Source: a virus (lineage: Duplodnaviria > Caudoviricetes). From it: a stretch of 64,000 bases of DNA. The position numbers and the translations under genes were made by a program. Where the stretch lies: positions 20,315-84,314 of the IMG/VR virus record IMGVR_UViG_3300033074_001499; one strand, given 5' to 3'. A model generated the notes under the pieces. It worked only from the letters and a program-made list of their open reading frames with translations. It made no database searches and had not been told where the DNA came from. Of the stretch, positions 28,418-57,263 are shown piece after piece (within the stretch, counting starts at the first letter, position 1; the number at the start of each line of letters is the position of its first letter).

Positions 28418-28492
28418 GGGCCTATAGCTTAAAGTAAAGCAGCCTGGCTCATAACCGGGAGGACTTAGGAGCGTTACCTATTGGGCCCACCA
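28418..28492 (+). tRNA. tRNA(CAU): Ile2 favoured over Met; atypical T-loop
   Basis: GGGCCTA/TGGGCCC-A-CCA; CCTGG-CTCATAA-CCGGG; C4:G69 and C5:G68 as in TilS substrates; T-loop AGCGTTA. Confidence 0.8.
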
Positions 28493-35700: not shown

Positions 35701-35729
35701 TTGACGCGCAGCGTAGCTTCAATTAAAAT
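35701..35729 (+). promoter_or_regulatory. Early sigma70 promoter
   Basis: TTGACG-N17-TAAAAT with UP element. Confidence 0.8.
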
Positions 35730-35766: not shown

Positions 35767-36003
35767 ATGAAAGTTTCCAAAGGTTATAACGGCTACAAAA
35801 ATTACAACCAGTGGAATATCTCTCTATGGATAAACAATGATGAAGGGTTGTATCGGATGGCTAAGGAATATGTGTCTGTGTACAATCGCAAAGAAGCAGC
35901 ACAAGCAATGCTTGATGATCTGAAAGAGTATGGAATCACTCACACACAAGATGGTGTTAAATTCTCCAAAACTGGTATCCTGGCTGCAATGGTGGGAATG
36001 TAA
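35767..36003 (+). CDS. Hypothetical early protein
   Basis: YNGYKNYNQWNISLWINNDEGLY, a recurrent phage family. Confidence 0.8.
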   Translation: MKVSKGYNGYKNYNQWNISLWINNDEGLYRMAKEYVSVYNRKEAAQAMLDDLKEYGITHTQDGVKFSKTGILAAMVGM

Positions 36004-36019
36004 AACATACACCCTTTAC

Positions 36020-36113
36020 GAGGTTGTAGCTTAATTTAAAAGCAGCGAGGAACACAGAGGCTTCATAAAAGCCAATGCATCCGTCAATGCAGGTGCAAAT
36101 CCTGCCGACCTCA
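36020..36113 (+). ncRNA. tRNA-like RNA with enlarged central domain, no CCA
   Basis: Acceptor GAGGTTG/CGACCTC, D-stem GCTT/AAGC, T-arm GCAGG-TGCAAAT-CCTGC. Confidence 0.7.
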
Positions 36114-36123
36114 CTCTATTCTG

Positions 36124-36149
36124 AAGCCTCCTTGATTGGAGGCTTTTTT
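36124..36149 (+). terminator. Intrinsic terminator
   Basis: AAGCCTCC-N6-GGAGGCTT-TTTT. Confidence 0.85.
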
Positions 36150-36186
36150 ATTCCTAAATTCTAATAAATTTTTCTACAGAAAAGGC

Positions 36187-36214
36187 TTGCATCTGATTCC
36201 TCAAGCTGTATAAT
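36187..36214 (+). promoter_or_regulatory. Early sigma70 promoter
   Basis: TTGCAT-N16-TATAAT with TG. Confidence 0.75.
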
Positions 36215-36256
36215 GAACCCATAGAAAGCAAAAACATCAACACAAGGAATACTGAA

Positions 36257-48391: not shown

Positions 48392-49504
48392 TTATTCCTT
48401 AATAAATCCATAGTGAGTTAACTCAGCCTCTTCTCTCACAAACACAGCAAGTTCAAAATCTGTAGTAACAAAAATCCTTTTCTTTTTAATGCGCACATCC
48501 CAAACACCCGGTTTAATTTGATATACGCCAGTCCTTCCTGATTTATTTGTAACTCTTTTATTTTGATTAAACGCTTGGGTTACCCTGTCTGCCCAACAAC
48601 AATTTTCTTTGCAGTAATTACCATTCGGGTCTTTTCTTTCAAGAGTATATTCTGATGAAGGTTTAGGTCCCATATCAGCATAGAAAGCCATAAAATCTTC
48701 TTCCCACTCTTTGCTCATAGATATTCCTCTTCCGCCATATCTATCATATGAGCCTGAATTAGAATTTTTTACTCGCGTTTTAGCGGCCTGCCAAGAAATA
48801 TATTCGGGTGTTCCTGTCATCTCATGTTTTAAGTTTCTCTCAGCCGAGTTTTCGGCGTGGAAACAACCACAACTTTGAGTATGTCCTGTGGACAATTCAT
48901 TGTAGGATGTTTCAACAACATTACCGCAATCACATTTGCATACCCATCGGATTCTAGAGTCCCCATGTTTATCTTTGATTCTTTTCTTGTCTACAACGAG
49001 AAGTCTATTGAATTTTTGACCAAAAATATTATTACTTTCAGCGTAAACCCATTCTAGATTTTCAGCTTTATTGTTATTCTTATCTCCATCCTTGTGTATG
49101 ACGTAGGGCTTATTTTCAGGATTTGGAATAAACTTTTCTGCAACCAGCCTGTGAAGTTTAGATGTTTTACCAATCATCCCACATTTCACCATCAAAAATC
49201 CTTGAGCATCTGGCACAGCTTTTAATTCTTTACCCCAACGCATGCTTAAGATTGAACCTTGGTCTGAAATACAATACTTCTTCTCTTCGTCCAACCACTC
49301 CCAATTACCAGAAGGTAACTTAATATTTTTATTGTAGCAAGTTTCACAGTGGAAAGATTTTGATGCTCCTTTCAAAACAATAGGAATTTGTCTCTTATCT
49401 ATATCAAAAGATTTACCGCAATCGCAGTGACCCTCTACACGGTATTTTCTTCCCCTGAGATATTTTCTTGAAACTGTCAACCATTGAAATTTTTCCTCAT
49501 TCAT
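48392..49504 (-). CDS. Tandem two-nuclease-domain HNH homing endonuclease
   Basis: HRLVAEKFIPNP..KPYVIHKDGDKNNN..NLEW plus second LERKDPNGNYCKENCCWA domain. Confidence 0.85.
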   Translation of the reverse strand: MNEEKFQWLTVSRKYLRGRKYRVEGHCDCGKSFDIDKRQIPIVLKGASKSFHCETCYNKNIKLPSGNWEWLDEEKKYCISDQGSILSMRWGKELKAVPDAQGFLMVKCGMIGKTSKLHRLVAEKFIPNPENKPYVIHKDGDKNNNKAENLEWVYAESNNIFGQKFNRLLVVDKKRIKDKHGDSRIRWVCKCDCGNVVETSYNELSTGHTQSCGCFHAENSAERNLKHEMTGTPEYISWQAAKTRVKNSNSGSYDRYGGRGISMSKEWEEDFMAFYADMGPKPSSEYTLERKDPNGNYCKENCCWADRVTQAFNQNKRVTNKSGRTGVYQIKPGVWDVRIKKKRIFVTTDFELAVFVREEAELTHYGFIKE

Positions 49505-56436: not shown

Positions 56437-56511
56437 GCTCGGTTAGCTGGAAGGTCTAGCAATCCTCTTGTAAGGGAAAGATGGTATAGGGTTCGATTCC
56501 CCCACTGAGCA
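56437..56511 (+). tRNA. tRNA-Thr(UGU), possibly degenerate, no encoded CCA
   Basis: GCTCGGT/ACTGAGC; TCCT-CTTGTAA-GGGA; T-loop TTCGATT but only 3 clean T-stem pairs. Confidence 0.65.
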
Positions 56512-56646: not shown

Positions 56647-57198
56647 ATGCAAAAAGAAATCTGGAAAGATGTTGTTGGTTACGAAGAATACTTCATGGTG
56701 AGTAGCACAGGTAGGGTTTGGTCTAAGAGAACTGAAAAATTGTTAGCTCCTACACAGTTAAAAAGTGGCTATCTTGTTATAAATTCTAAGATAGGTGGTA
56801 GAAATGGCAAAGCTGTTTCTCTAAGAATTCATAGATTGGTTGCAGAGGCTTTTTTATCTGAGCCAGAAAAATCAATAAGTCAAGCTTGTTCAGAAACCCT
56901 CTACGGTAAAGTTCCTGTTAACCACAAAGACGGGGACAAAAAGAATAATTGTGTAGAAAATTTAGAATGGTGCACTTATTCTTATAATACTCGCCATGCT
57001 ATACAAAACGGCTTTCTTGTACACAAGAAGGGTTTTGAAAACAGTTTATCCAAACTGACAGAAGAACAGGTTTTGGAAATAAAAAGTTGTTATGTAGCCA
57101 ATCATAAAATTTTTGGCACCAGAGCTTTAGCAAAGAAATACAATGTGCATCACACGACAATAAGTAGAATTGTCAGAAACAATGCTCCGCGTTCATAG
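56647..57198 (+). CDS. NUMOD4-HNH homing endonuclease
   Basis: EIWKDVVGYE..FMVSSTGRV (NUMOD4); HRLVAEAF...VNHKDGDKKNN..NLEW; start 56647. Confidence 0.9.
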   Translation: MQKEIWKDVVGYEEYFMVSSTGRVWSKRTEKLLAPTQLKSGYLVINSKIGGRNGKAVSLRIHRLVAEAFLSEPEKSISQACSETLYGKVPVNHKDGDKKNNCVENLEWCTYSYNTRHAIQNGFLVHKKGFENSLSKLTEEQVLEIKSCYVANHKIFGTRALAKKYNVHHTTISRIVRNNAPRS

Positions 57199-57263
57199 TT
57201 TAATTGGCAAAACCCTAGACTTCCAATCTAGTGTTCCCAGATCGTGGCTGGGTGGACGCTCCA
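57189..57263 (+). tRNA. tRNA-Gly(UCC), atypical T-loop
   Basis: GCGTTCA/TGGACGC-T-CCA; CTAGA-CTTCCAA-TCTAG; CCCAG-ATCGTGG-CTGGG. Confidence 0.88.

Follow-up and report, generated by a model that had tools for sequence, protein, structure and literature searches.

A tRNA-shaped RNA, probably without decoding ability, carrying an exchangeable module in a narrow clade of uncultured phages

Phage tRNA genes are usually read as helpers of codon usage and, lately, as replacements for host tRNAs cut by defence nucleases. Phage T4 also produces small stable RNAs, species 1 and 2 (rnaC and rnaD), which are tied to tRNA genes and to tRNA processing. At the 3' end of MALAT1, the tRNA-like cloverleaf mascRNA is cut by RNase P and can leave a stable small RNA.

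In plant mitochondria, t-elements are non-decoding cloverleaves located downstream of an mRNA, and RNase P, by cutting at their 5' side, generates the end of that mRNA (Forner et al. 2007, PMC1920247). In the engineered tRNA scaffolds of Ponchon and Dardel the anticodon stem-loop is the insertion site for a structured hairpin and the acceptor, T and D arms are retained; such RNAs are recognised by cellular factors of E. coli and accumulate as stable processed RNA (PMC3753655). The tRNA genes of Lak megaphages contain short, highly conserved inserts in the anticodon region, described as "enigmatic introns" (Devoto et al. 2019, PMC6784885).

Here we describe a phage element of 94 nt for which we observed a tRNA-shaped structure, compensatory conservation among homologues, a missing anticodon loop, a small transcription unit of defined anatomy and a second type of central module. 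The reading that we favour, to which we give about an even chance of being right, is that the element is a natural "tRNA scaffold" RNA: tRNA-derived, non-decoding, and with a module replacing the anticodon loop.

A cloverleaf with an extended anticodon arm

The window, the whole stretch of 64 kb that was analysed, corresponds to bases 20315-84314 of an 84.3-kb IMG/VR virus record which is 91% complete. The record encodes DNA polymerase I, primase-helicase, ribonucleotide reductase, ThyX, PhoH, large terminase and portal; the identity of its terminase to the nearest cultured phages is only about 45%.

The Rfam tRNA model RF00005 aligned end to end to positions 36020-36113 with a score of 41.4 bits, the gathering cut-off being 29 bits, and an E-value of 2e-5 over the whole window. 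The cloverleaf with an elongated anticodon arm was also the minimum free energy fold (-29.6 kcal/mol, z = -3.3), and none of 200 shuffled sequences was as stable; folding in the context of the transcript gave the identical cloverleaf together with the terminator hairpin. These results agree with an earlier sequence-only reading, which had proposed a tRNA-shaped RNA at this place, and every acceptor, D-stem, T-arm and inner-hairpin motif that it had listed was recovered.

The element lies on the plus strand and is built as follows: a 7-bp acceptor stem (GAGGTTG, 36020-36026, with CGACCTC, 36106-36112) which includes one U-G pair; a 5' segment (36020-36044) which comprises the acceptor 5' strand, U8, A9, the D arm (stem GCTT/AAGC, loop AATTTAA) and position 26; an extended anticodon arm (36045-36084) made up of a 5-bp stem (36045-36049 with 36080-36084) and, enclosed by it, an insert of 30 nt (36050-36079); a T arm (36089-36105) with the 5-bp stem GCAGG/CCTGC and the 7-nt loop TGCAAAT; and the acceptor 3' strand CGACCTC followed by the discriminator A (36106-36113), as placed by the sequence and the cmscan alignment. 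The spacing is that of a tRNA, with a 1-nt spacer after the D stem, the anticodon stem at its canonical position and a variable loop of 4 nt. The G-U pairs 6:88, 26:65 and 30:61 would be C-A mismatches on the opposite strand, which places the RNA on the plus strand.

The departures from a tRNA at the elbow and at the 3' end had in part been pointed out before. The D loop AAUUUAA does contain no G, as had been said of its missing GG, and the T loop has G at position 55; the elbow contacts of G18/G19 with Psi55/C56 are therefore not available. Among the homologues described below the T loop is UGCAAAU, UGAAACC or UGAGACC, compared with the consensus T-Psi-C-R-A, and C56 is lost in L123 and L210. 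With a D loop lacking G18/G19 and a T loop off consensus, the tRNA elbow may not form, so the structure that is normally read by RNase P and by the CCA-adding enzyme may be missing in this element. The lack of an encoded CCA had likewise been seen: the discriminator A36113 is followed by CTC. The window copy reads ACUC at its 3' end and several relatives read ACC-U/C, none of which encodes CCA.

The only departure from the model in the cmscan alignment was in the anticodon arm, where 34 nt are found and RF00005 expects 11. The insert holds a 2-bp helix and a hairpin (36059-36073) formed by the 5-bp stem GGCTT/AAGCC and the pentaloop CATAA. The anticodon stem itself is a clean 5-bp helix in most relatives and contains one A-C mismatch in the window copy. 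The central domain had been described as doubled; what was found instead is an anticodon stem of normal length closed by the insert. A duplicated anticodon arm was rejected, as only short direct repeats could be found (CAATGCA twice and GAGG twice).

A decoding tRNA has a 7-nt anticodon loop, U33, an anticodon and a purine at position 37, and the element departs from this pattern: with a structured insert of 30 nt in place of the 7-nt loop, it has neither U33 nor an anticodon. ARAGORN at default settings called no tRNA at the element, even with introns allowed. The apical CAU, taken as Met-like in the sequence-only reading, is CAC in relatives and is not conserved.

Other candidate assignments were tried and rejected. 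For a tmRNA, the ARAGORN tmRNA search was empty, no Rfam tmRNA match was obtained at E up to 10 and a tag ORF is absent; YrlA also gave no match at E up to 10, and other Rfam families gave none. An antiterminator was considered because the module sequence GAGGCTTC (36057-36071) is complementary at 13 of 15 positions to the trailer and the 5' arm of the terminator (36116-36130). This pairing is not kept in relatives: their terminators, GCCCTC/GAGGGC, break it, and the complementarity is probably due to chance.

The transcription unit and its surroundings

A putative sigma-70-like early promoter (35701-35729, plus strand; TTGACG, 17-nt spacer, TAAAAT) was identified by a consensus scan, with 10 of 12 matches. 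It is followed by a 78-aa ORF of the ORF list (35767-36003, plus strand), assigned to DUF7249 (Pfam PF23907, 53.5 bits) and to phrog_871 (PHROG 871), for which 99 homologues were found. The stop codon of this ORF and the first nucleotide of the 94-nt RNA gene, which is supported by the Rfam match, the fold and covariation, are separated by 16 nt. An intrinsic terminator (36123-36146, plus strand), recognised by scan and fold as a 9-bp stem and a T run, closes the unit 9 nt past the RNA. Because the ORF and the element lie between one promoter and one terminator, the RNA would be the 3' part of an early monocistronic mRNA.

The scan thus recovered the promoter and the terminator which had been placed at 35701 and at 36124 from the letters alone. 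The description of the RNA as lying alone in an early cassette has to be corrected, since the DUF7249 ORF stands between promoter and RNA. A promoter-like site is likewise present upstream of the homologous gene in L123, and the terminator stem covaries among relatives, CCTCC/GGAGG being replaced by CCCTC/GAGGG. The larger ORFs of the record that were scanned included no CCA-adding enzyme, no RNA ligase and no protein of a similar kind.

The whole record contains three other tRNA genes: one with anticodon CAU (28418-28489), tRNA-Thr(UGU) (56437-56511) and tRNA-Gly(UCC) (57189-57263). The element is indeed far from other tRNAs, as had been remarked, the nearest beginning at 28418 and 56437. The CAU tRNA (plus strand) has the loop CUCAUAA and an encoded CCA, scores 41.4 bits with Rfam and is missed by ARAGORN; its D loop is short and without GG, its T loop AGCGUUA is aberrant and its T stem contains a U-U pair. 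A TTGACA-type promoter lies just upstream of it, and a homologue is found in a close relative (G001:820-891). The Thr(UGU) gene (plus strand; Rfam, 34.6 bits), also missed by ARAGORN, shows an A-A mismatch atop the anticodon stem; its variable region is enlarged, and it does not encode CCA. The Gly(UCC) gene is regular, with CCA encoded.

Viral contigs of IMG/VR frequently contain the 17-mer of the T arm, GCAGGTGCAAATCCTGC, with its G at position 55 (loci L005-L122). ARAGORN called tRNA genes at 41 of 119 places with this sequence, the window copy being among the 119, and 25 of the calls were tRNA-Met(CAU). These tRNAs typically have the D loop AGUAG or AGCAG, and not GG, which suggests a class of phage tRNAs with a non-canonical elbow. 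At several uncalled places (e.g. L012, L017 and L050-L053) the acceptor strands match, and these may be further tRNA-like RNAs.

Past the terminator lies the next early promoter (TTGCAT, 16-nt spacer, TATAAT), followed by GAACCCAT. The block formed by terminator and promoter (36114-36256) is conserved in L123, L210, L268, L270, L272, L211 and L265, and the ORFs that border it differ: upstream, inserted ORFs of 67 aa and 75 aa are found, and downstream the genes alternate. By its appearance the block could be a joint at which early-gene cassettes recombine; T4-type phages have something comparable in their promoter-early stem-loops. An ORF of 370 aa resembling HNH homing endonucleases (phrog_374) lies at 48392-49504 on the minus strand of the window, and in L266 an HNH/NUMOD4 gene is located near the homologous early region. 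Mobile endonucleases may add to the mosaicism of this region.

Homologues, covariation and exchangeable parts

Seven distinct full-length homologues were found, all within a narrow clade of uncultured phages. IMG/VR contained a single one (L123/L125), and the others were reached through the flanking proteins in a large assembly collection. Full-length copies are located at 3245-3338 in L123, L207 and L208, which are identical in sequence in all three; at 672-765 in L209; at 3247-3340 in L210, with a G-G mismatch at acceptor pair 7; in L270 (1719-1812) and L271, where DUF7249 and the element are separated by a 75-aa ORF; at 189-288 in L272; and in L268 (1445-1546) and L269, which carry a different central module. 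Stubs of 25 nt joined to the terminator are present in L211 (1648-1672) and L265 (1246-1270), and the element is absent at the corresponding site of L212, L124, L266 and L267.

The distribution of the element is narrow. A covariance model built from four copies (R1) matched in one of 24 related phage records, a relative with 98% identity in terminase (TerL); the other 23, which are more distant, do not have the element. Carriers are limited to phages whose flanking DUF7249 protein is at least about 77% identical. Neither blastn against cultured phages nor exact-pattern scans of metagenome and genome collections gave a homologue. In IMG/VR, the other 20 matches of the D-arm 17-mer were all unrelated sequences, and among 62 matches of the central 15-mer L125 was the sole homologue, the remainder being taken as chance. 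Independent lineages number only about four.

The pairing is well preserved in this small sample. Standard pairs fill 97.9% of pair cells across the seven distinct sequences, and double compensatory changes occur in five pairs: four of the five pairs of the T stem, and C27-G64 of the anticodon stem, which is U-A in L268. None of 500 column shuffles reached the observed covariation score, and slid partners gave 29-48% paired cells. The alignment used for this analysis was fitted to the model; an independent one (MAFFT and RNAalifold) arrived at this structure again, with covariation in the same five pairs. In the acceptor stem the changes are restricted to U-A replaced by U-G, apart from the mismatch in L210. 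The sequence-only reading had named a lack of compensatory changes in the acceptor and T stems of homologues as evidence against itself; the T stem is compensated in four of five pairs, and the acceptor stem shows wobble changes only, so that the reading was not refuted by its own criterion.

The window copy and that of L123 differ by 12 substitutions. In the T stem, four of these combine into two double compensatory changes, which turn C-G into U-A and A-U into G-C. Two more exchange a wobble pair for a Watson-Crick pair or the reverse, one restores pairing at the A-C mismatch, and five fall in loops. In the 94-nt copies as a whole about 15 substitutions are found, of which only two break a pair. 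Between L123 and L210 the 5' two-thirds of the element are identical (69 of 69 positions), in contrast to a flanking gene which is only 82.7% identical.

The first 25 nt (36020-36044) are invariant in all 25 columns among nine distinct relatives aligned (ten loci), stubs included, compared with 59 of 92 columns in the adjoining terminator-promoter block. In L265 the same 25 nt encode the C-terminus and the stop codon of the inserted 67-aa ORF. The invariance of this segment in stubs that are unable to fold as tRNA fits no explanation so far. As the conserved terminator-promoter block adjoins the element, part of the conservation may reflect recombination of cassettes and not the function of an RNA.

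Two copies show that parts of the element can be exchanged. L268, whose flanking protein falls in the same 90% cluster as that of the window, retains the acceptor stem, the D arm, the base of the anticodon stem and the T arm, pairing in the anticodon and T stems being kept up by compensatory changes, and its insert is an unrelated module of 38 nt which folds into two hairpins and has no match in IMG/VR. In L272 the frame and the common module are kept, and a 7-bp stem with a UUAU tetraloop replaces the T arm; the acceptor strand is displaced downstream and the stem still closes. Copies of the common type agree in every internal-loop base of the module and differ in the apical loop and the T arm.

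Taken as a whole, the comparison of sequences indicates that the element is probably a selected, structured, tRNA-shaped RNA without decoding ability. The retention of only the first 25 nt in L211 and L265 indicates that the full RNA is dispensable; the flanking gene of L265 is the closest to that of the window (92.8%), yet only the stub was kept. The tiny clade, the stubs, the G-G mismatch of L210, the elbow contacts that are not available and the position in the tail of an mRNA, instead of in a gene of its own, speak against an important role.

Explanations weighed and known systems compared

If the element is a natural scaffold, transcription from the early sigma-70-type promoter would yield it as the tail of the DUF7249 mRNA, just before the intrinsic terminator. 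[quoted passage not shown] By analogy with the engineered scaffolds, the tRNA frame would supply processing and stability, and the exchangeable central module would be the working part, binding some partner in trans. On a more speculative level, this partner could be a host factor which binds or targets tRNA.

A wider proposal, which we consider unlikely, is that phages use the tRNA frame as a display scaffold for modules acting in trans, an undescribed class of small RNAs, possibly including an uncleavable mimic of the substrates of immune nucleases; host tRNA enzymes would excise and stabilise the RNA by way of the frame. Possible targets of such a mimic are the tRNA-targeting enzymes PrrC, RloC, PARIS, retron-linked PtuAB and Schlafen-type enzymes. 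The narrow distribution, the swapping of modules and the fast change of the T arm are compatible with an anti-defence decoy, which the sequence-only reading had suggested as a possibility, and are not specific to a decoy.

The element could instead act only in cis, as an RNase P signal comparable to a t-element, which cuts the early mRNA after the stop codon and releases an RNA without function; the cut would remove the protective terminator hairpin and set the 3' end and the half-life of the mRNA. The anatomy of the unit is as expected for such a signal, a tRNA-like fold that abuts the end of an mRNA with 16 nt to the stop codon and 9 nt to the terminator. The element is always directly upstream of the terminator, even where an ORF is inserted before it (L270 and L265), and the exchange of the module in L268 is expected if the module is irrelevant. 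RNase P cleavage directed by t-elements downstream of mRNAs is on record (PMC1920247). The pattern of variation is, however, the opposite of what a pure RNase P signal predicts: in the common type the D arm and the module vary least, whereas the T arm and the acceptor 3' strand, the parts usually read by RNase P, vary most. In addition, the relatives with a 25-nt stub manage without the signal. We regard a purely cis-acting signal with a functionless excised RNA as rather unlikely.

Several features recall a decaying pseudo-tRNA, possibly of the Met(CAU) type, on its way to being lost after an insertion in the anticodon loop had inactivated it: the narrow distribution, the deletion derivatives L211 and L265, the G-G mismatch in L210 and the A-C mismatch in the window copy, the degenerate elbow, and a T-arm 17-mer typical of phage tRNA-Met(CAU) genes. 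Decay would not account for double compensatory changes in five pairs with 98% of cells paired, nor for a 5' part of 69 nt which is better conserved than the flanking coding and intergenic DNA, nor for a second, well-folded module in the same frame (L268); this origin of the present sequence is quite unlikely.

Constraint at the level of DNA, with the element and the terminator-promoter block serving as a recombination joint or as a protein-binding site and the fold being a relic, appears very doubtful. It would agree with the persistence of the block while the genes on both sides differ among relatives, and with the invariance of the first 25 nt even in truncated copies unable to fold as tRNA, but it predicts neither compensatory changes that preserve pairing nor G-U pairing specific to the plus strand.

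An intron-bearing tRNA, from which the insert is removed to give a working tRNA as for the Lak "enigmatic introns", is almost certainly the wrong explanation: conserved inserts have been described in phage tRNA genes (PMC6784885), and when introns were allowed and the threshold was lowered to 90%, ARAGORN called a tRNA-His(AUG) with a 23-nt intron, but this solution has A33 and C37, the default search was empty, and the apical CAU changes to CAC in relatives. By inspection, no single excision that leaves a 7-nt loop yields U33. The insert is flanked by G...UGCA in the common type and by G...CACA in L268; as the L268 insert leaves different bases beside the stem, the two module types share no mature exon loop, and no one excision restores a canonical loop in all homologues. 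A bulge-helix-bulge motif is absent from the element, and an insert of 23-38 nt is too small to hold a ribozyme. From these sequence features splicing is very unlikely.

If the scaffold reading is true, the element would mirror, in nature, the engineered tRNA scaffold. A selected, non-decoding tRNA shape with a swappable module would, if true, represent a third use of the tRNA fold, as a frame through which small regulatory or counter-defence RNAs are processed and kept stable. If the element is only an RNase P-dependent signal for an mRNA 3' end, it would be a parallel, in a bacterial virus, to the t-elements of plant mitochondria. The system is compact, with a gene of 94 nt in a cassette with a standard promoter and terminator.

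The dimensions of the acceptor, D, anticodon, variable and T-arm regions and the discriminator match those of canonical tRNA (RF00005). The element differs from it by the insert of 30 nt (38 nt in L268), the aberrant D and T loops and the lack of an encoded CCA, and L272 carries a non-tRNA hairpin at the T position. T4 species 1 and 2 belong to the T4 tRNA cluster, and drawings of them show no full cloverleaf with an insert in the anticodon arm. The removal of the Lak inserts gives an assignable tRNA type and anticodon, whereas no excision does so here.

In tmRNA and YrlA, a tRNA-like domain has a long helix replacing the anticodon arm, as in the element; the two ends of YrlA RNA lie in the long stem, whereas those of the element lie in its acceptor stem. 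The t-elements are likewise located directly downstream of an mRNA, the cleavage being only inferred for the phage element. They belong to another kingdom, show no sequence relationship to it and usually keep the T-arm motif GGTTCRANYCC, which the element lacks.

The architecture of the engineered tRNA scaffold is equal to that of the element, and in E. coli this architecture gives precise processing and stability. The engineered RNAs were built by design on human tRNA-Lys3 or E. coli tRNA-Met and have a canonical elbow, whereas the element, whose processing is predicted, is natural and phage-encoded and has a degenerate elbow.
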